From positions 192,001 to 256,000 of the forward strand of contig CAVUKA010000005.1 in the NCBI GenBank assembly GCA_963741945.1: a stretch of 64,000 nucleotides of DNA. Reading direction: 5' to 3'. Numbering within the stretch: position 1 is the first letter of the stretch; every line of letters starts with the position of its first letter. The position numbers and the translations under genes were made by a program. Under the pieces are notes generated by a model. The model worked only from the letters and a program-made list of their open reading frames with translations. It was not told the origin of the DNA and ran no database searches. Shown here in pieces: positions 55,040 through 62,662 of this stretch. Source of the stretch: an uncultured Gemmatimonadales bacterium. GTDB taxonomy: Bacteria; Gemmatimonadota; Gemmatimonadetes; Longimicrobiales; RSA9.

Positions 55040-55819
55040 TCAGTCTCCTGTGTCCCGGTCCACCACGTATGCGTTCCTCTGCGCAGTCGGCAGCAGAACC
55101 ATGCGCAGCACGTTGGCGTGCGGAGGGAGGTTGGCGGCGTAGAACACGGCATCCGCCACGTCGTCGCCCCTGAGCGGCTGGAAACCCTGGTAGACGCCGG
55201 CCGCCCGCGCCTCGTCCCCGTGGAAGCGGACCGTGGAGAATTCCGTCTCCACGAAGCCCGGGTCCACGCTGGACACGCGCAACGGGGTCCCGGAGAGGTC
55301 GAGGTTGATGGCTTCCGTCAGGGCGGTCACACCGAACTTGCTGGCGTTGTAGACGTTCCCGCGCGGATACACCTGATGCCCCGCGGTGCTGCCGATGTTG
55401 ATGACGTGGCCCCGTCCGGCCTCGATCATCGCCGGCAGCAGGAGCCGCGTCACGTTCAGCAGCCCCTTGACGTTCGTGTCGATCATCCGGTCCCAGTCAT
55501 CGAAGCTCCCTTCCTGGATCCGGTCGAGCCCGGCGGCGAGCCCCGCGTTGTTCACCAGCACGTGGGGCGGCCCCGCCGCTTCGAGCAGCGCGTCCACGGC
55601 GGCACGGACGGACTCGCGATCCCGGACGTCCACCGCCGCGGTGTGAACGGCCACACCGTGCTCCCGGGCCAGCTCTTCGGCCAGGCGGTCGAGCCGCTCC
55701 GCTCGCCGGGCCCACAGTGCCACGTCTGCGCCCTCCGCCGCGAACCGGCGGGCGCACGCTTCTCCGATGCCTGAGCTCGCGCCCGTGATGAGCACGAGCT
55801 TCCCCTGGATTCTGTTCAT
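55040..55819 (-). CDS. SDR family NADP-dependent oxidoreductase (YdfG-like)
   Basis: TGASSGIG, NNAG, GSTAG, YNASK, PGFVETEFS. Confidence 0.92.
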   Translation of the reverse strand: MNRIQGKLVLITGASSGIGEACARRFAAEGADVALWARRAERLDRLAEELAREHGVAVHTAAVDVRDRESVRAAVDALLEAAGPPHVLVNNAGLAAGLDRIQEGSFDDWDRMIDTNVKGLLNVTRLLLPAMIEAGRGHVINIGSTAGHQVYPRGNVYNASKFGVTALTEAINLDLSGTPLRVSSVDPGFVETEFSTVRFHGDEARAAGVYQGFQPLRGDDVADAVFYAANLPPHANVLRMVLLPTAQRNAYVVDRDTGD

Positions 55820-55860
55820 GGCATGAAGGTCCGGCGCCGTCAGGAGCCTGTCAACTCCCG

Positions 55861-56763
55861 TCAACGATGGACGGTCGGTGACTCCTCGATCCCGGTATCT
55901 TCACGCCGGCAGTCGCGCAGGGGGAGCGCGCGCCGGGGATCGCGGGCCCGCGCCTCGATCCGCGCCACCACGCTGTCGCGCATGGCCACGAACCGGCGGG
56001 CGAGCCGGGGCTCGAGGAGGCCGGCCACGGCGGCCTCCAGGGAGTCGTCCGGCAGGGTGCGGTACCGGTCGAACGGGGGCCCCAGCGCGCCCGGGCGCTC
56101 GATGGAGTCCACTTCCGTCTCCCAGCACGACATCGGCTGTCTCGCGGGCGAGTAGTCGAACGCCCGGTTGTGGTCGATGGCCACGGCGTGTCCGCCCGGG
56201 GCCACGAGCCAGTTGCCGCCATGGCGGTCACTGTTCCCGATCGCCGCATCGAAGAACCGCAGCAGGTCCGGCTTCCGCTCCCCTCGCTCCGCCGGCGTCG
56301 TCGCGCCGCGAATGAAGTACATGGCCGAGCCAGCCATGGTGTCGCCGCCCGCCACGATGCGCTGCAGCACGGTCATGGGGGTGAGATCGATTCCGAGCAG
56401 CCGATCCACGCGATAGGCGGCCACTTCCCGGTTCGCGCCGCAGGGGCGGCAGAAGATGTCCGAGCCATCCACTTTGAAGATCGACTCGACACCTCCCGGA
56501 TGGGTGAGCCGGAACGTATAGGAAACGCCCTGGCTGTCGAGGGAGAGCGGGTTCGCGCGCTCGGGCGGGGCCACCAGCAGCGCCCGGAGCGCCCGCAGGA
56601 TGGAGTCGGCGCGCACGGTGTCGCCCGCGGCGCGGGCAGCCCAGGCCGCCTCCTGGTAGCGCCCGGCGGCGAGCAGCGAGTCGGCGCTGGCGACGCGCTG
56701 CGCGGATGCGGGGAGAGGGAGAGCGGCCCCGAGGACCAGCAGCGTAGCTGCACGCAGGTACAT
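55861..56763 (-). CDS. Signal-peptide-bearing atypical kinase (PI3K/PI4K/Fam20-like)
   Basis: Signal peptide (ASA-Q); IFK, REVAAYRVDRLLG, FDAAIGNSDRHGGNWL, IDHNRAF. Start could be further upstream (56799 or 56844). Confidence 0.78.
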   Translation of the reverse strand: MYLRAATLLVLGAALPLPASAQRVASADSLLAAGRYQEAAWAARAAGDTVRADSILRALRALLVAPPERANPLSLDSQGVSYTFRLTHPGGVESIFKVDGSDIFCRPCGANREVAAYRVDRLLGIDLTPMTVLQRIVAGGDTMAGSAMYFIRGATTPAERGERKPDLLRFFDAAIGNSDRHGGNWLVAPGGHAVAIDHNRAFDYSPARQPMSCWETEVDSIERPGALGPPFDRYRTLPDDSLEAAVAGLLEPRLARRFVAMRDSVVARIEARARDPRRALPLRDCRREDTGIEESPTVHR

Positions 56764-56883
56764 GGCCAGTCGATCTCCCGGGGAAATGGACGCCCGCATT
56801 CCGAGGCCACCATCGGAATGGCGCACTTCAACATGCGTCATCATCGGCTCCCGGTCGAGCGACCGCCCGCGGGCAGCGCGCCG

Positions 56884-57306
56884 TTACGGACCCGTGTAGC
56901 AGCCGGGCTCTTCCCGCACCACCCTCCTGCCGCTCACCCGGCCCGACTGCACGCAGGACAGCCCCACGGGATGTCGGGCCACTGCCTCCCAGCTGTCCGC
57001 GTCTCCCGTCACGACCAGATCGACGCTGTCCGCGGGCTCCAGTCTCAGCGCACTCAGCTCACCGGTGAACCTCCCGGTCGTGGCGTGATACGCTTCTTCG
57101 GCTCCGGCCACGCGCTGCAGGGTTCCCAGCACCTTGCCATGGGGAGTCTCATCCCCGTAGCCACTCCCGAACAGCACGCTGGCGGCTGCGCTCACCGCAA
57201 CCACACCCACCACCATCAGGATCAGCAGGCTCGCCGGACTCTTCCGTGCGGCCCTGCCCATGGCCCCGTTCCCGTGCCGGCGCTCCGGCTCCCAACGATC
57301 TGACAC
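56884..57306 (-). CDS. Membrane-anchored hypothetical protein with a pilin-like globular region
   Basis: TM followed by LQRVAGAEEAYHATTGRF and two C-terminal Cys; no prepilin GFxxxE motif. Confidence 0.6.
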   Translation of the reverse strand: MSDRWEPERRHGNGAMGRAARKSPASLLILMVVGVVAVSAAASVLFGSGYGDETPHGKVLGTLQRVAGAEEAYHATTGRFTGELSALRLEPADSVDLVVTGDADSWEAVARHPVGLSCVQSGRVSGRRVVREEPGCYTGP

Positions 57307-57368
57307 TGCTCCCTCCTTCGCGCGGTCTCCGGCTTCAACCCCTCTTCAAGACTCGCGCCGGTGGGGAG

Positions 57369-57632
57369 CTACCGAGCCACCTGCTTCTTCGCCCAGCGAC
57401 GATAGAGCCAGAGCAGCAGCAGGGCGCCGAGGATGGAGCCGATCCATCCGGCGGGCGTCAGCGTCGAGCGGCCGGGCCAGATCAGGCCGATGATGAACCC
57501 GCCCACCACCGAGCCGAGTATCCCGAGCGCGATCGTGGCCAGGCAGCCACCCGGGTCCTTGCCCGGCATGATGAGCTTCGCGATCGCGCCCACCACCGCG
57601 CCGAAGAGGATCCACCACAGCAGCGTGAACAT
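57369..57632 (-). CDS. GlsB/YeaQ/YmgE family stress-response membrane protein
   Basis: WILFGAVVGAIAKLIMPG, LGILGSVVGG, SILGALLLL. Confidence 0.92.
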   Translation of the reverse strand: MFTLLWWILFGAVVGAIAKLIMPGKDPGGCLATIALGILGSVVGGFIIGLIWPGRSTLTPAGWIGSILGALLLLWLYRRWAKKQVAR

Positions 57633-57729
57633 TGCGTCACCGTCCCATGGAGATTGATCGGATGAACGTCCGCTCTCCTGGTACGCAAGATGTGGACGCG
57701 GTCGGATCCGGAAAAGGCGGGAGTGACGG

Positions 57730-57848
57730 TGAAAAAGCGCGCGAGGGTCAGCCGATCGGGTGAAGCCGTCCGCCCGAACCCCCTGAACCGGCGGCTAGCG
57801 TTCGACCCTCTCGGCTGCCCTCGCGTGACTGCAAAGCGGTCTTCTACT
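57730..57848 (-). ncRNA. Candidate structured small RNA (family not recognised)
   Basis: Intergenic ~86-nt rod hairpin (57740-57825) followed by a U-tract, preceded by an ECF-like promoter. Confidence 0.45.
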
Positions 57849-57851
57849 CTC

Positions 57852-57880
57852 TAGATGCCGGTCGGCCCGAAAACCTTACA
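57852..57880 (-). promoter_or_regulatory. Candidate ECF-type promoter
   Basis: Minus strand TGTAAGG-N16-CATCTA. Confidence 0.4.
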
Positions 57881-57896
57881 GCGATCTCGCCAGTCA

Positions 57897-57932
57897 CGGA
57901 AACGGCCCCCGGGGCATTGCCCCGGAGGCCGT
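57897..57932 (-). terminator. Terminator-like hairpin after the DEAD/CSD gene
   Basis: Minus strand ACGGCCTCCGGGG-CAATG-CCCCGGGGGCCGT followed by TTCC. Confidence 0.55.
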
Positions 57933-57969
57933 CGTTCCACCCCCGCGCGAGCCGCGCGCGGCCGGAGCG

Positions 57970-59028
57970 TCAGAGAGGCTGGACCTCCCTCGCTTCCGGG
58001 CTCTTCTCCGTCGGCACGCGGCGGAAGCGGACCCGCTGGCCATCGTCCAGCGACTTGAAGCCGTCGCCCAGGATGTTGGAATGATGGACGAACACGTCCT
58101 CGCCGCCGTCGTCCGGCTCGATGAAGCCGAAGCCCTTGCTGTTGCTAAACCAGCGGACCGTGCCCGTGATCTCGCCGTCCCCGCCGGCGGCGGCGACGCC
58201 GGCGACCACGCGCTCCGGGCTCTCGAACGCGGGCTGCCCCGGGCGCCGCGACGGCGGGAGCGGGGCAGCCGCCACCTCCACGCGCATCGGGTCGGTCATG
58301 ACGGTGCGCGCCAGGTCCTGCGCTTCGGCGGAGAGCGTACGTCCCACGAAGATCACCTGGCAGTCGTCGGGAGTCAGCTCCGCGATCCGCTGGATCTCCC
58401 CGTGCTTGCCGCGCTGGAGCAGCGCATCCACCGGATCGAAAGCGAGCACCTCTACCTGCCCGAGTCGGACGTTCCCCGCCTCGACGTGCTCGAGCAGTCG
58501 GTCGGGCGTGGCCACCAGGATGTCGAAGCCGGCCCTCAGGTCGCGGACCTGGTCCACCGCCGGCTCGCCACCGTGGATCTCGCCCACCCACAGGTCGGTC
58601 TCCCGGGCCAGGGCGCTGACCTGACTCCCGATTTCCCGGACCATGTCCTCCGTCGGCGCTACGACGAGCGTGAACAGCCCCTCGCGGTGCAGCTGGCGCT
58701 CCAGTGCCGGAACCACGTACGCCCCCGTCTTCCCCGACCCCGCCGGGGCGCTCAGAAGGATGTCCCGCCGACTGGAGAGAACGTCCGCCATGCGGGCCTG
58801 CGCCGGGCGAGGCTCCTCCCACCCCATGGCATCCAGCCCGCGCCGGAGCTCATCGTGCTCCACCAGGTCCGCGAACGTTTCCGCCTCTGCCCGCCCCGGG
58901 ACCGCCCCGGCACCGGGAGCTGCGGCGGGACGCCCCCGCCGCCGGAGGAAGACGACCGCGACCCATATCACCATGAGCACGACTGCCACTACGAGGACCG
59001 TCGTCCAGAAACCGTTGATTCCGTTCAT
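57970..59028 (-). CDS. TM-anchored degenerate DEAD-box N-terminal domain fused to a cold-shock domain
   Basis: TM then [53 protein letters not shown]...DVFVHHS. Confidence 0.88.
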
Positions 59029-59144
59029 GTTCTCAACTTCCGCGGCGTGCGCCGCAATTGTCAAGCGAACCCCTACGTGCACCGTTTCTTGCAAGAGCGC
59101 CGAACCGGATCGAGACCGTCCACCAGCAGGGGAGGCGTGCGCCC

Positions 59145-59348
59145 ATGGCACTCGGACCGATGACCCGGAAATGGCTGATCGTCGTCATCGTAGCGGTGGT
59201 CGTGCTCGTCGTGGCCGGCCTGATCTATATCGCCTTCGCCTACGAGGGCGTGCGCCCGGAGGTCGGGCGCGGCGATTCGGATCAGGTCAGTACCATTGCG
59301 CCGCCAGCCCATTCACTCCCGCAGCCCACCCGCTTCCATCGCGGCTGA
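59145..59348 (+). CDS. Possible small single-TM protein
   Basis: GGAGG RBS and [24 protein letters not shown]; overlaps the convergent gene end by 62 nt. Confidence 0.45.
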
Positions 59349-60321
59349 ATCCGACGGCGTTGTACCCCGCACTACCCGCCGCCTTCCACGTCGCCCCGTC
59401 ATCCCGTGAGTACGCCGACCCGGAAGGGCCCACGGCCACCAGGAGCGGCGGATCGCTCCCCGGCACGTAGGCCACGCCGTACCACACGCCTGGGAGAGCG
59501 GCCGTGGAAACCGCCGACCAGCTCCGCCCTCCATCCCGAGTGGTCCCGAGGCGCACGGGCACGCTGGTGCTGTCGGTGTAGTCCCCGCCCACGATCACGC
59601 CGTGCAGCGTGTCCCGGAACGCTACGCCGAATATACCTGCGCTCGGTCCGGCCGGCAGCGGGGTGTCCGCGGCCGTCCAGGTGCGGCCGCCGTCGCGGCT
59701 CCGCAGGACCCGGGCCCGCGCGCCAGCGCCCGTGCCGATCCAGGCGTGGGTCGCGCCAGCCACGGCCACGGCCGTCCCGCTGGCCGCGAAACCACCCTCC
59801 CCATCCAGCGCGGCCGGGACCGACTCCGCCGGCACCCAGTGCTTCCCATCTTCCGTGCGTACGATCGTGAGCCGCCCCGCAACGGCATCCCCGAACGCCA
59901 CGCCGCGCCGCGCGTCCCAGAAAGCCATGCCGTCGTAGAACGCGTCCGGTCGATCGTCCTGGTAGACCACGCCCCAGCTCCGCCCGCCGTCGCCGGTCCG
60001 GTAGATCCGCGCCAGACCGCCATCGAAATGCGTTCCGAGCGCGAACGCCGCCAGAGAGTCCGCTGCGGCGACACCCACGATGAACAGCGACTCCGCGCCG
60101 GTGATCGTGTCCACGCGCCAGGGCGCGCCGGCTTCGCTCAGCCGTGCCACCACACCCCCGCGCCCGCCCAGCCAGACGCCGCCATGCCTCACCGCAGAGA
60201 CACCGCGGAACTCCGCGTCCGTGGGTGCCGGCCGCGCGTTCCAGGGGCGGGCGACCGTCACACCCGCGGCGCACGCCCACGCTGCCGCCACCACCGCGGC
60301 CAGCCCGATCGTCACTCGCAT
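59287..60321 (-). CDS. Exported YCF48/BNR-repeat beta-propeller protein
   Basis: Signal peptide; TGDGGRSW, TEDGKHW, SRDGGRTW, SRDDGATW; FAASGT. Confidence 0.85.
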   Translation of the reverse strand: MRVTIGLAAVVAAAWACAAGVTVARPWNARPAPTDAEFRGVSAVRHGGVWLGGRGGVVARLSEAGAPWRVDTITGAESLFIVGVAAADSLAAFALGTHFDGGLARIYRTGDGGRSWGVVYQDDRPDAFYDGMAFWDARRGVAFGDAVAGRLTIVRTEDGKHWVPAESVPAALDGEGGFAASGTAVAVAGATHAWIGTGAGARARVLRSRDGGRTWTAADTPLPAGPSAGIFGVAFRDTLHGVIVGGDYTDSTSVPVRLGTTRDGGRSWSAVSTAALPGVWYGVAYVPGSDPPLLVAVGPSGSAYSRDDGATWKAAGSAGYNAVGFSRDGSGWAAGVNGLAAQWY

Positions 60322-60403
60322 CCTGGATCGCATGGCCGCATGATGGACTCGCCGCACGGGCCCCGCAACGGGGCGGCCGCAATCCTGCGAGAGCTGAGGG
60401 CCC

Positions 60404-61516
60404 ATGGACTGGAAGCGCGCACTCACGGAAGCCGCCTGGCTCACGGAGGAAGGCGCGGATCGACTTCGTCGCCGCGTCGATCGACTCCTCCGCCCCGGCC
60501 GCCCGGCCCGCGTGGAGCCCTACAGGAGCTACGGGACCCCGTCCCGGGTGCGTGTGCGAGGACGCGTCCTCCACGGCGAGGCGCCCGCCCCGGCCACCCC
60601 CTCCGACCCCTGGTGGCTGAACCTGGCGAACGCATACCGCCGGCTGGGGAGCGCCGAAGTGGCCGGCGCTCGACTGCGCGTCGCGTTCGCCGGCGACATC
60701 CGCGAGGCGAGATCGGACGATGAAGGGTTCTTCGCCGTCGACCTGGCCCCGACCATCCCCCTCGACCCGGACCGCCTCTGGCACCCCGCCAGCATCGAGC
60801 TTCTCGCGCCGCGGGGCACGGGAGCGCAGTCCGTGGTCGCCGTGCCGAACGGCGCGCGCTTCGGCATCATCAGCGACCTCGATGACACGGTCGTTCGCAC
60901 CGGCGCCACCAAGGTGCTCCGGATGGGGCGGGAGGTCCTGTTCGGGAATGTCCACACGCGCATGCCGTTCCCGGGCGTCGGCGCCTTCTACCGCGCGCTC
61001 CACATCGCCGCGGCCGGGGCCGGGGAGTTGAACCCCGTGTTCTACGTTTCCAGCAGCCCCTGGAACCTCTATGACCTCCTCGGCGAGTTCCTCCGCCTGC
61101 ACGGCATTCCGGCGGGGCCCATGGAGCTTCGCGACTGGGGGATCACGCGGGAGGAGATGCTGCCAGCCGGCCATCACCGCCACAAGCGCGCGGCCATCGA
61201 CCGGATCCTCGAGACCTACCCGACCCTGAGATTCCTTCTGGTGGGCGACAGCGGACAGCAGGACCCGGAGATCTACCGTGAAGTGGTGCACCAGCACCCG
61301 GGCCGGGTCCTGGCCATCTATATCCGCAGCGTGATCCCGGACGCCGACCGCATCCGCGCCGTCGATGACCTCGCCGCCGAGATGGCCCGCAACGGCGACG
61401 CCGAGCTCGTCCTCGTGCACGACACCCTCGAGGCCGCCAGCCACGCCGCCGCGCGGGGGTGGATCCGGGCAGCCGACGTCGATACCGTGGCCCGCACCCA
61501 GCGCAGTGAGCAGTGA
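60404..61516 (+). CDS. App1 family phosphatidate phosphatase (DUF2183)
   Basis: ISDLDDTV (DxDxT), YVSSSPWNLY, GDSGQQDPEIY, AIYIR. Confidence 0.88.
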   Translation: MDWKRALTEAAWLTEEGADRLRRRVDRLLRPGRPARVEPYRSYGTPSRVRVRGRVLHGEAPAPATPSDPWWLNLANAYRRLGSAEVAGARLRVAFAGDIREARSDDEGFFAVDLAPTIPLDPDRLWHPASIELLAPRGTGAQSVVAVPNGARFGIISDLDDTVVRTGATKVLRMGREVLFGNVHTRMPFPGVGAFYRALHIAAAGAGELNPVFYVSSSPWNLYDLLGEFLRLHGIPAGPMELRDWGITREEMLPAGHHRHKRAAIDRILETYPTLRFLLVGDSGQQDPEIYREVVHQHPGRVLAIYIRSVIPDADRIRAVDDLAAEMARNGDAELVLVHDTLEAASHAAARGWIRAADVDTVARTQRSEQ

Positions 61517-61976: not shown

Positions 61977-62414
61977 CTACTCGTCGCGCTCCACCCGGCC
62001 CCGCAGCTTCTTGACGCGGCCCCGGTGCTTCTTCGCCCGGAGGCGCCGCTCCTTCGACGCCTTCGTGGGCCGCGTCGCCTTGCGCTTCTTGCGTGGCCGC
62101 AGCGCGTCCGCCACCAGCGCTGCGAACCGCTCCAGCACCTCTTCCCGGTTCCGGTGCTGGCTCCGGTGCGCGTCCGCCGACAGGTGCAGCACGCCCCCCG
62201 TGTCGATGCGGTTCCCCAGCCGCGACCGGATCAGCTGGCGACGTCGGTCCGTCAGCGACGCCGAGCCGTCCACGTCCCACGCCAGCTGCACGCGCGTCGC
62301 CGAGGTGTTCACGTGCTGCCCCCCCGGGCCGCCCGATCGTGTGGCCCGGAGCTCCAGCTCGGACGTGGGGATGCTCAGCCGCTGATTGATCCGAATCCGT
62401 CCGGGCTCATCCAT
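61977..62414 (-). CDS. arfB: Alternative ribosome-rescue factor B (YaeJ)
   Basis: RSGGPGGQHVN, RSQHRNR, basic tail RKATRPTKASKERRL. Confidence 0.93.
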   Translation of the reverse strand: MDEPGRIRINQRLSIPTSELELRATRSGGPGGQHVNTSATRVQLAWDVDGSASLTDRRRQLIRSRLGNRIDTGGVLHLSADAHRSQHRNREEVLERFAALVADALRPRKKRKATRPTKASKERRLRAKKHRGRVKKLRGRVERDE

Positions 62415-62662
62415 CGGTCCGCGGTGTGCGAGGAGTGTCTGGACGTTCGCGAGGCAAGCACCGAGCCGGCGCGCCATGGCGCGCCGGCTCGCGGACCGCC
62501 CCACAGGCGAAAATCAACTGCGGTGGGGCAAAACCCGCTCTCCGATATACGGGTCTCCCCGACAGACAGCCCGGGAAGCGCTCCGTATTATCTTACGGGG
62601 GGATTCTAACCCTGCAAATTCGGCTCGTCTCGAGCCGTCGCACCTTCCAGGAGGCCATTCAC

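Follow-up and report, generated by a model that had tools for sequence, protein, structure and literature searches.

The window analysed here, a 64,000-nt stretch of bacterial DNA, contains at positions 57970-59028 an open frame that an initial annotation had described as a membrane-anchored half of a DEAD-box helicase fused to a cold-shock domain (CSD). DEAD-box proteins are taken to require both RecA domains. Is this locus a genuine gene, and if it is, what could a lone RecA1 domain contribute to a protein held at the membrane?

Gene structure and domain architecture

The coding strand is the minus strand, an orientation that the initial annotation did not give. In the ORF listing, the frame is open over 57970..59151 if it is read from an upstream GTG. 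We placed the predicted start at ATG 59028, in agreement with the initial annotation, because the N-termini of the homologues begin there and a conserved promoter ends 6 nt before this ATG. The gene and its main modules are as follows.

57970..59028, minus: complete CDS with TGA stop (57970-57972), 352 aa, comprising TM anchor, DEAD-box RecA1, linker and CSD
58264..58878, minus: DEAD-box RecA1 domain, residues 51-255 (Pfam, AF2)
58177..58263, minus: linker in place of RecA2, residues 256-284 (AF2)
57973..58176, minus: cold-shock domain, residues 285-352, RNP1/RNP2 aromatics intact (Pfam)

Pfam located DEAD (PF00270) at residues 74-238 (E 9.7e-26) and CSD (PF00313) at residues 288-351 (E 5e-24; 84.4 bits vs a cut-off of 27), and returned no Helicase_C (PF00271) in the 352-aa protein; NCBIfam helicase models aligned over their first ~210 positions only. 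The AF2 model (pTM 0.68) consisted of three confident modules joined by low-confidence linkers: a helix at residues 3-31, a RecA1 fold at 51-255 with pLDDT >93 and a five-stranded CSD at 286-351. Between the RecA1 domain and the CSD lay only a disordered linker, with pLDDT <50 for residues 266-282. A complex prediction of RecA1 (45-258) with the linker plus CSD (262-352), meant to show whether the CSD occupies the place of RecA2, scored 0.01 against a mark of 0.32 and speaks neither for nor against such docking. The protein does not contain the two-RecA core of DEAD-box SF2 helicases, which combines RecA1 with a RecA2 bearing motifs IV-VI. The best ESM Atlas scores were 0.88 (<0.9), to DEAD-only clusters ~210 aa long. 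Pfam, NCBIfam and AF2 together bear out the proposed combination of a TM helix, a DEAD-box RecA1 and a CSD with no RecA2, and all of the motifs quoted in the initial annotation are present as given, including D-P-V-D at exactly 58426-58437.

Distribution and selective constraint

The same architecture was found in ~97 clusters among the 120 matches listed in public protein data, and ~7 full-length clusters at 50% identity were recovered among 1.84 billion representatives. Orthologous loci were obtained from genome searches. The gene is present in 24 of the 73 genomes of the source genome's taxonomic family, in 22 of which it spans both domains, and its presence is uniform within genera (7/7, 3/3 and 2/2). 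The 80 loci kept from a family-alignment search of the genome contigs were generic CSD or DEAD matches, with no orthologue among them. Between L001 and L092, the dN/dS ratio was 0.117 overall, 0.127 in RecA1, 0.29 in the linker and 0.020 in the CSD.

These results bear on the possibility that the locus arose by chimeric assembly or is a pseudogene in decay. Orthologue L101, whose genome is 72% complete, has a frameshift where the linker meets the CSD, which would fit that explanation; the explanation is nevertheless refuted by the recurrence of the architecture on many independent contigs and genomes, by the overall dN/dS of 0.12, and by a conserved promoter and a terminator-like hairpin. The stretch 57970-59028 was therefore confirmed to be a real, conserved gene of some Gemmatimonadota, neither chimeric nor decaying. 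The initial annotation had argued against simple decay, as the overall ratio and that of the CSD (0.02) now bear out. It had also named two outcomes that would overturn its reading, namely homologues that are full-length active helicases, which would imply mis-assembly or a chimera, and an architecture that is already characterised. The homologues share the architecture and none of them is a full-length helicase. The gene is unstudied so far: neither Pfam nor NCBIfam yielded a curated model of the TM+RecA1+CSD architecture, and no paper describing it was found in a full-text literature search, with supplements and most subscription journals outside its reach.

Predicted membrane anchor

Two features make up the predicted anchor.

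58945..59013, minus: transmembrane helix, residues 6-28, predicted N-out/C-in (hydropathy, flanking charge, AF2 helix 3-31)
58930..58944, minus: R-R-R-G-R, residues 29-33, a run of positive charges at the cytoplasmic end of the helix (flanking charge)

The transmembrane call combined the hydropathy profile with the charge of the flanks and the helix of the AF2 model. Peak 19-residue Kyte-Doolittle hydropathy was 3.18 in this protein, with a family median of 3.04, and did not exceed 1.19 anywhere in 9 canonical paralogs. The flanks of the helix in the 352-aa protein contain no K+R before it and 4 after it. Across the family, K+R averaged 4.86 over the 15 residues that follow the helix vs 0.10 before it, and the C-flank was the richer one in 124/124 sequences. 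The helix was found in all full-length orthologues. One helix of ~20 residues with a positive cytoplasmic flank predicts a single-pass, N-out/C-in protein and supports a topology in which both RecA1 and the CSD are cytoplasmic. As a prediction, then, the proposal of an N-terminal TM helix followed by RRRGR and a cytoplasmic remainder agrees with the hydropathy, the flanking charge and the AF2 helix.

The RecA1 domain and its helicase motifs

The motif counts below refer to sequences (n=98 for the window's clade, n=124 for the family) drawn from database clusters and genome loci of related lineages, near-duplicates included, and do not represent independent events.

58798..58812, minus: Q-motif P-R-P-A-Q, residues 73-77, Gln kept (97/98 clade sequences)
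58726..58749, minus: motif I/Walker A A-P-A-G-S-G-K-T, residues 94-101, kept (Lys in 97/98 clade sequences)
58639..58656, minus: motif Ia P-T-E-D-M-V, residues 125-130, RNA-contacting Arg gone (Arg in 12/98 clade sequences)
58495..58509, minus: motif Ib T-P-D-R-L, residues 174-178 (Arg in 124/124 family sequences)
58426..58437, minus: motif II D-P-V-D, residues 198-201, Pro for the catalytic Glu, both Asp kept (alignment)
58336..58344, minus: G-R-T instead of S-A-T at the motif III position, residues 229-231 (Gly and Arg clade-invariant)

Judged against the DEAD-box SF2 signature, the protein possesses the Q-motif and motif I, and does not possess a motif II D-E-A-D with its Glu or a motif III S-A-T. 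The helicase motifs are invariant in the 9 canonical paralogs, where motif Ia reads P-T-R-E-L-A, the motif II Glu is present and motif III reads S-A-T (9/9 in each case), whereas they drift within the family. S-A-T occurs in 0/98 clade and 0/124 family sequences; at motif II, the clade shows Glu in 0/98, the first Asp in 98/98 and the fourth Asp in 98/98. The motif Ib Arg is the sole helicase-motif residue common to all of the family sequences. The sub-clades form a series, from a near-canonical RecA1 with D-E-A-D kept, to D-P-x-D combined with G-R-x in the window's clade, to the most divergent clade, which has mostly lost the P-loop (its Lys remains in 3/9 sequences) and shows the motif II Glu in 1/9.

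Within the window's clade, conservation reaches at least 99% at six residues of the cleft face, P199, Q205, R206, H209, G229 and R230, all of which differ from the invariant canonical residues, and L203, Q205, R206 and H209, which adjoin motif II, are clade-invariant. Because the altered motif II/III residues are ~100% conserved in this clade, the pattern points to a site that has been re-purposed rather than one that is merely degenerate. The description of the protein as a pseudo-helicase stands in that the gene is genuine and selected, while the word degenerate gives an incomplete account of it.

An ATP-driven RNA clamp or unwinder would be impossible, because RecA2 (motifs IV-VI, with the arginine fingers) is absent and the motif II Glu is missing from the clade. 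A helicase or ATPase could still be imagined if RecA2 were supplied in trans by a partner or by a second copy of the protein itself, and the Walker A, Q motif and both motif II Asp kept in the window's clade would suit such an arrangement. We consider it very improbable, since the genome encodes no stand-alone Helicase_C gene (all 13 Helicase_C matches lie in frames of at least 439 aa), the catalytic Glu is missing in 98/98 clade members, the P-loop is lost in other clades and a search among longer proteins gave no form with RecA2.

Origin of the family

In the RecA1 tree, all 29 family RecA1 rows formed one clade with an SH-aLRT of 100, adjoining the canonical RhlE-like paralogs. The RecA1 domain is 39-43% identical to that of the RhlE-like paralog of the same genome (G000:C3, L011:1459-2751, 430 aa; P0104-P0110), and the sequence on either side of and including motif Ib (Q-[IV]-R-D-L-R-A-G-F-D ... 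T-P-x-R-L) is shared by the paralogs and the family. The paralog differs in that RecA2 is present, all seven RecA1 motifs are intact (9/9), and there is neither a TM helix (hydropathy at most 1.19) nor a CSD. A canonical RhlE-like helicase is still encoded in the same genome, and the lineages carrying the lone RecA1 differ by up to ~64% in sequence. The tree shows a single origin of the gene, within one Gemmatimonadota lineage; a duplicate of the resident RhlE-like DEAD-box helicase would there have shed its RecA2 and acquired both the anchor and the CSD. A search for a TM+RecA1+RecA2+CSD intermediate, covering the longer class of proteins, returned only 6 ordinary helicases at 30-35% identity, a blank that constitutes weak evidence.

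Full-length DEAD-box and CSD fusions also exist (P0112, P0114-P0117, P0120, with an N-terminal CSD; P0119, with a C-terminal CSD). They likewise unite the two modules in one chain, but RecA2 is still present in them, their motifs are canonical (D-E-A-D and S-A-T in P0114 and P0119) and they have no TM anchor. Because these proteins are placed elsewhere in the RecA1 tree, we regard them as independent fusions on the basis of that phylogeny. A candidate second CSD fusion at G000:C1:780321 (350-aa frame) was rejected, because it is a small CSP of the usual kind that lies within a long, GC-rich open frame.

Cold-shock domain and linker

The C-terminal domain has five strands in the AF2 model and carries RNP1 K-G-F-G-F-I and RNP2 V-F-V-H. 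W293, F294, K298, G299, G301, F302, F313, V314 and H315 are invariant in 101 sequences, so that the CSD, initially called intact, retains its nucleic-acid-binding residues throughout the homologues. The linker carries a short clade-conserved motif, F-E-x-P-[DE]-R-V, in the consensus of the homologues. CspA and CspE match the C-terminal 65 residues over nearly the full model with RNP1/RNP2 residues intact; the scores lie below the NCBIfam equivalog cut-offs (CspE 84.8 bits vs 120; CspA 77.6 vs 130). CSPs are free proteins of ~70 aa, whereas the present CSD forms the C-terminal part of a 352-aa membrane protein, and the gene in the window's clade does not have a long cspA-type 5' leader.

CSDs bind single-stranded DNA besides RNA, and the ligand could for this reason be DNA; the Pfam title of PF00313 is itself 'cold-shock DNA-binding domain'. 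The protein might then serve as a nucleoid tether, connecting the membrane with bubbles formed in replication, repair or transcription. This reading is improbable, given that the parent domain comes from an RNA helicase lineage in the RecA1 tree and that no DNA-metabolism genes are conserved nearby.

Promoter, terminator-like hairpin and neighbouring genes

Three putative regulatory elements flank the gene.

59059..59064, minus: -35-like hexamer TTGACA (conserved in 10/11 clade-A loci)
59035..59040, minus: -10-like hexamer GAAGTT, 18 nt downstream of the -35 and 6 nt upstream of the ATG (aligned orthologous flanks)
57902..57932, minus: GC-rich 14-bp hairpin then GUUUCC, terminator-like, ~38 nt past the stop (folding)

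The full promoter pattern occurred 2 times in the window vs 0.01 expected. Since the conserved promoter abuts the ATG, a leaderless mRNA is predicted, with the transcription start inferred. The 85-nt hairpin region folded with an MFE of -58.8 kcal/mol (z -3.63), and comparable hairpins with T-runs were found at L092 and L096. A generic promoter/terminator scan returned 0 sites, and the promoter and hairpin were visible only through aligned orthologous flanks and folding; the hairpin was missed by the scan because its T-run is weak. A cspA-thermoregulator hit in the scan of 56500-60500 was rejected as a UTR element, as it reached an Rfam score of 27.1 bits vs a gathering score of 78 and lay on the CSD coding sequence. 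A search of sequencing runs listed no RNA sequencing run carrying the gene.

When all flanking ORFs of 24 loci were clustered (flanks ~1.5 kb), no conserved operon partner spanned the four clades, so that the gene's surroundings suggest neither a partner nor a pathway. The neighbours are of housekeeping type and not conserved.

Anti-phage and conflict systems often contain CSD-like and SF2 helicase modules. Searches of PADLOC-DB, in which a defence assignment calls for a full-length match with partner genes nearby, gave partial domain-level matches only (CSD_V, E 6e-10; SngC, BrxH and DpdF, E 1e-9 to 1e-6), and Pfam added a weak match to the S1/CSD-like domain of TOTE systems (E 0.041). All of these reflect generic domain similarity over part of long models, however, and the neighbouring genes had no match in PADLOC-DB or a weak one to PDC-M03A at E 5e-4 or worse. 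Together with the nature of the neighbours, the uniform within-genus presence and low dN/dS, which fit a vertically inherited core-type gene, leave only a slight chance that the protein belongs to an anti-phage or conflict system.

Proposed function

The observed part of the explanation comprises the architecture, the signal for the topology, the conservation and selection of the gene, its single origin and the state of its motifs. From these we infer RNA binding, nucleotide binding and a role: with moderate confidence, the gene most likely encodes a membrane-tethered, non-unwinding single-stranded-RNA binding protein that arose once from an RhlE-like duplicate. It would be a single-pass N-out/C-in inner-membrane protein, with a cytoplasmic RecA1 flexibly linked to a canonical CSD. 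The CSD would capture RNA and RecA1 would act as a non-catalytic binding platform, and the outcome would be RNA held or chaperoned next to the membrane, such as the mRNAs of membrane proteins or the RNAs that membrane-anchored RNase Y cuts. Canonical DEAD-box RNA binding requires both RecA domains. For this reason, and because the motif Ia Arg is lost in 86/98 clade sequences, RecA1 may add nothing to the binding of RNA. E. coli CspE and CspC are described in PMC4520561 as binding U-rich membrane-protein mRNAs.

In the window's clade, the RecA1 domain has probably kept the ability to bind an adenine nucleotide, though not to hydrolyse it. According to the entry titles of PDB 3ber, 2gxq, 3fe2 and 2pl3, crystals of lone RecA1 domains have been obtained with AMP or ADP. 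The motifs make such binding plausible for this clade only; it cannot be a family-wide mechanism, since no more than 3/9 sequences of the most divergent clade have the P-loop Lys. The adenine-nucleotide sensor proposed initially is accordingly possible where Gln and Lys are kept in 97/98 and the two Asp in 98/98, but not as the function of the whole family. In a further version of this idea, which we think unlikely, the RecA1 of the window's clade would be a RecA2-independent adenine-nucleotide switch that binds ATP or ADP tightly without hydrolysis, with the clade-invariant basic residues R206, H209 and R230 replacing in cis the phosphate contacts of the missing motif VI arginines and the nucleotide state gating capture or release of RNA by the CSD. 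If true, this would be a case in nature of half a DEAD-box core acting as a switch, and an energy-charge sensor coupling membrane-proximal RNA handling to the ATP/ADP level.

CshA, the Firmicutes degradosome helicase, acts at the membrane via RNase Y, which it contacts through its C-terminal region, and the membrane anchor of RNase Y is known from B. subtilis. As a sub-case of the membrane-tethered RNA binding protein, the window protein might sit beside RNase Y and pass RNA on to it, replacing or supplementing the role of CshA. The genome has RNase Y (154.6 bits) and, as RNase E/G, just a short form in a 510-aa frame, both RNase Y and the window protein would be tethered by an N-terminal helix, and CshA (PDB 5ivl, 6aic) ranks first for the RecA1 module in NCBIfam, among PDB sequences (E 2.1e-41) and by fold, its N-terminal domain in 6aic superposing with a Foldseek TM of 0.93 and an rmsd of 1.5 A. 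We nevertheless doubt such an adaptor role: the similarity is generic to RecA1, the CshA model (NF053631) giving 114.6 bits vs a cut-off of 646 over positions 1-205 of 434 only, and RNase Y lies on another contig with no synteny. CshA itself is complete, active and soluble, with RecA2 and a C-terminal dimerisation/interaction region that is absent here.

Another comparison is with eukaryotic pseudohelicases such as Utp25p, which may retain two RecA-like domains. According to PMC9539457, such proteins are DEAD-box-derived, have lost catalysis and are non-enzymatic components. They are eukaryotic and soluble, and have no CSD and no TM anchor, unlike the window protein.

Significance

In this family, a lone RecA1 is membrane-anchored, fused to a CSD and maintained under purifying selection. 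The sub-clade series separates the RecA1 surfaces that matter once catalysis is gone. The narrow, mostly uncultured range of the gene limits its immediate tractability. Few dedicated bacterial factors for membrane-proximal RNA localisation or decay are known, and if RNA is held at the membrane by this protein, it would be such a factor.

Architecture and topology of the half-helicase

The half-helicase of the window combines a membrane anchor, a DEAD-box RecA1 domain, a linker and a cold-shock domain (CSD), and its features are as follows.

57970-59028, minus strand: half-helicase CDS, 352 aa, ATG at 59028
59064-59059, minus strand: TTGACA, conserved upstream of the ATG
59040-59035, minus strand: GA[AC][AG][AT]T-type hexamer, 6 nt before ATG 59028
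residues 6-28: hydrophobic helix, peak 19-residue hydropathy 3.18
residues 3-31: N-terminal helix in the AlphaFold2 model
residues 51-255: RecA1 fold in the model, pLDDT >93
residues 74-238: Pfam DEAD domain, E 9.7e-26
residues 39-41 and 266-282: low-confidence stretches of the model
residues 286-351: five-strand CSD in the model
residues 288-351: Pfam CSD, E 5e-24

The open frame extends upstream as far as a GTG at 59151. Because the homologues all start a few residues ahead of the hydrophobic helix and the conserved promoter ends 6 nt before it, ATG 59028 is the right start, and the coordinates of the initial annotation hold. Pfam found DEAD and CSD domains and no Helicase_C, as expected from the proposed absence of RecA2 and presence of a CSD, and all of the motif states previously listed were found in the protein. 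The NCBIfam helicase equivalogs aligned only over their first ~210 positions with scores far under cut-off; the protein thus fails the equivalog test for CshA (114.6 bits against a cut-off of 646), and it fails those for CspA/CspE as well. Unlike a DEAD-box helicase, it lacks the defining two-domain core, D-E-A-D and S-A-T. The AlphaFold2 model, built from a family alignment of 101 sequences, had a mean pLDDT of 89.0 and a pTM of 0.68. In Foldseek searches its RecA1 module superposed on isolated DEAD-box N-terminal domains, including that of S. aureus CshA (6aic; TM 0.93, rmsd 1.5 A, 200 columns). Both the RecA1 fold and the CSD of the half-helicase are bona fide.

A comparable N-terminal helix was present in all full-length orthologues of every clade, its sequence being poorly conserved. 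The median anchor hydropathy of the family was 3.04, while nine canonical paralogs (complete RhlE-like helicases of Gemmatimonadota) reached at most 1.19 over their whole length. Lys plus Arg averaged 0.10 in the 15 residues before the helix versus 4.86 in the 15 after it, and the C-terminal flank exceeded the N-terminal one in 124/124 family sequences; three aberrant rows arise from the choice of start codon or from a contig end. The positive-inside rule is an established basis for reading topology from flanking charge. Given this asymmetry, the half-helicase is predicted to be a single-pass protein, N-out/C-in, with RecA1 and CSD cytoplasmic, which fits the earlier proposal of a transmembrane helix with a cytoplasmic remainder.

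Distribution and selective constraint

A word-indexed protein search listed 120 proteins, among which 97 clusters (P0002-P0098; three of them short fragments) carried DEAD and CSD domains but no Helicase_C, with identities of 44-81% and lengths of 220-378 aa. Their database names were solely 'DEAD/DEAH box helicase [Gemmatimonadetes/Gemmatimonadota bacterium]' or 'cold shock CspA family protein'. When 1.84 billion representatives were searched exhaustively with HMMER, about seven clusters at 50% identity (P0028, P0093, P0123-P0127) matched over the full length in a single stretch. Of the 301 genomes sampled across the phylum, five had a match covering both domains (the own genome G000, G167, G289, G097 and G179), and G097, which is flagged unpublished, was the only one of these outside the taxonomic family of the window. 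Within that family, 24 of 73 genomes had a match: 22 spanned both domains, one was truncated at the edge of its contig (G338) and one was frameshifted (G339). The threshold of E 1e-50 was passed by 29 genomes, the remaining 5 matching only the RecA1 of ordinary helicases. Presence was consistent by genus (7/7, 3/3, 2/2, 2/2 and 2/2). The frameshift (L101, G339:C99, about 230-260, in a 72% complete genome) lies at the linker/CSD junction, and the CSD carries on in another frame, 95% identical to that of the window; it reflects an assembly error or else a gene broken recently.

Between the two closest genomes (L001 versus L092, both of the window's genus; dS 0.86), Nei-Gojobori dN/dS was 0.117 overall, 0.127 in RecA1, 0.020 in the CSD and 0.29 in the second linker; in more distant pairs, synonymous sites approach saturation. 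The homologue alignment and dN/dS indicate a conserved protein, and the architecture is unusual and clearly selected. No curated model in Pfam or NCBIfam covers the anchor-RecA1-CSD architecture, and no description of it was found in the full texts searched, mostly main texts of freely accessible articles; the possibility that this is an already characterised family found no support there. Among these articles, 'pseudohelicase' was found only for yeast Utp25p and in a C. elegans preprint.

Origin of the family

The own genome retains a canonical paralog of 430 aa (L011:1459-2751) with all motifs and RecA2. When 85 RecA1 domains were placed in a maximum likelihood tree (quick search, SH-aLRT support only), all 29 half-helicase rows formed one clade with support of 100. 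It attaches beside the canonical Gemmatimonadota paralogs, and long stems lead to the clade of the window (0.65) and to the most divergent clade (1.14). Seven complete helicases also bear a CSD, N-terminal in P0112, P0114-P0117 and P0120 (about 470 aa) and C-terminal in P0119 (518 aa). They sit elsewhere in the tree, unrelated to this family, and therefore represent independent fusions; on this phylogeny, CSD-helicase fusions arose several times. The alternative that the homologues are full-length helicases gained no support, since a search for longer proteins found no relative with RecA2, which is weak evidence by the method's own caveat. Because some members, such as P0124 (G-A-G-K-T, P-T-R-E-L, T-P-G-R-L, D-E-A-D), have a near-canonical RecA1, RecA2 was lost before the motifs changed.

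Expression signals and gene neighbourhood

Ten of the 11 window-clade loci share one layout: TTGACA, 18 nt, a GA[AC][AG][AT]T hexamer, 6 nt and ATG. In the 64-kb window the strict pattern had two matches (0.01 expected), both of which end on plausible start codons, those of the half-helicase and an SDR gene (55819). The promoter-ATG spacing predicts a leaderless half-helicase mRNA. Clades B and C (L103-L109, L003) have a similar TTGACA/GAGAAT-type promoter, but 40-110 nt ahead of the start and accompanied by a Shine-Dalgarno sequence; only the window's clade has switched to the leaderless layout. A 14-bp GC hairpin (z -3.63) follows the stop, and from this and the promoter layout the gene looks monocistronic, without a long cspA-type leader. 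The second match suggests that leaderless mRNAs are common in this genome.

The surrounding features are as follows.

55817-55854, minus strand: second pattern match (TTGACA, 17 nt, GACCTT, 6 nt, ATG); read from this ATG, a short-chain dehydrogenase would begin M-N-R-I-Q-G-K-L-V-L-I-T-G, 15 codons further downstream than its TTG start in the ORF listing
55861-56844, minus strand: PI3/PI4-kinase-like/SCO1664-like protein, weak matches only, after the 140-aa gene
56884-57306, minus strand: protein of 140 aa that has an N-terminal TM helix and matches no family
57369-57632, minus strand: small Transgly_assoc (GlsB/YeaQ/YmgE-type) membrane protein, its gene separating the half-helicase from the 140-aa gene
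59287-60444, minus strand: BNR/Ycf48-like protein, upstream of the half-helicase
60404-61516, plus strand: APP1-type phosphatidate phosphatase, divergent from the BNR/Ycf48-like gene
61977-62504, minus strand: ArfB, alternative ribosome-rescue factor (NCBIfam 151 bits, cut-off 100; RF-1 domain with G-G-Q)

None of the Transgly_assoc, 140-aa, kinase-like and BNR/Ycf48-like neighbours was conserved across the half-helicase clades. The Transgly_assoc gene occupies this position only in the window's genus (L001, L092). The 140-aa gene lies downstream in 7/11 clade-A loci and, with the kinase-like gene, in several clade-A genomes, reflecting either a functional link or shared ancestry. Because the longest ORFs of the BNR/Ycf48-like and APP1-type genes overlap by 41 nt at their 5' ends, at least one true start is probably further in. 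PADLOC gave only generic domain matches.

Motif states and candidate function

Motif states were tabulated for 124 family sequences (101 database clusters and 23 genome loci); the counts include near-duplicates and related lineages and are not independent.

Table. Sequences retaining each residue (columns: Q-motif Gln; P-loop Lys; motif II Asp1, Glu, Asp4; motif Ia Arg; S-A-T)
Window's clade (at least 58% identity), n=98: 97; 97; 98, 0, 98; 12; 0
Intermediate clades (40-57%), n=17: 6; 14; 17, 15, 10; 16; 0
Most divergent clade (<40%), n=9: 4; 3; 5, 1, 3; 6; 0
Canonical paralogs, n=9: 9; 9; 9, 9, 9; 9; 9

All seven motifs were invariant in the canonical paralogs, while the motif Ib Arg was the sole helicase-motif residue kept in 124/124 family members. 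Nine changed positions, all around motifs II and III, are fixed in the window's clade (F197, P199, L203, Q205, R206, H209, V228, G229 and R230; 99-100% conserved), and at every one of them the canonical paralogs have a different, equally invariant residue. In DEAD-box structures this face meets RecA2 and the ATP phosphates. The site appears to have been re-purposed in this clade.

Without RecA2, both the motif VI arginine finger and the bipartite RNA-binding cleft are missing. The own genome encodes no stand-alone RecA2, 13/13 Helicase_C matches lying in frames of at least 439 aa, and the catalytic Glu of motif II is gone in the window's clade. Given these losses, helicase or clamp activity is very unlikely (MECHANISTICALLY). 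Constraint is strongest in the CSD (top-residue frequency 0.92, dN/dS 0.02), which keeps all RNP1/RNP2 aromatics, bearing out its description as intact, and is the probable nucleic-acid-binding module. RecA1 is constrained as well (0.81 and 0.127). In the window's clade it retains the adenine-recognising residues and those that bind phosphate and Mg, and for other DEAD-box proteins PDB entry titles report crystals of RecA1 on its own with AMP or ADP; it is therefore plausible that RecA1 of this clade binds a nucleotide without hydrolysing it. The adenine-nucleotide sensor suggested in the initial annotation could apply to this clade but does not extend to the family: since the P-loop is lost in the divergent clade (Lys in 3/9), a platform that binds protein or RNA is the more likely family-wide role of RecA1.

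We lean towards the half-helicase being a membrane-tethered, non-unwinding RNA-binding protein. The most specific sub-hypothesis would be a link to RNase Y, which the own genome encodes. In E. coli, U-rich mRNAs for membrane proteins are bound by CspE and CspC (PMC4520561), so there is a precedent for a CSD that acts on RNAs destined for the membrane. The half-helicase, whose range is narrow and largely uncultured, bears on the capabilities of a lone RecA1.
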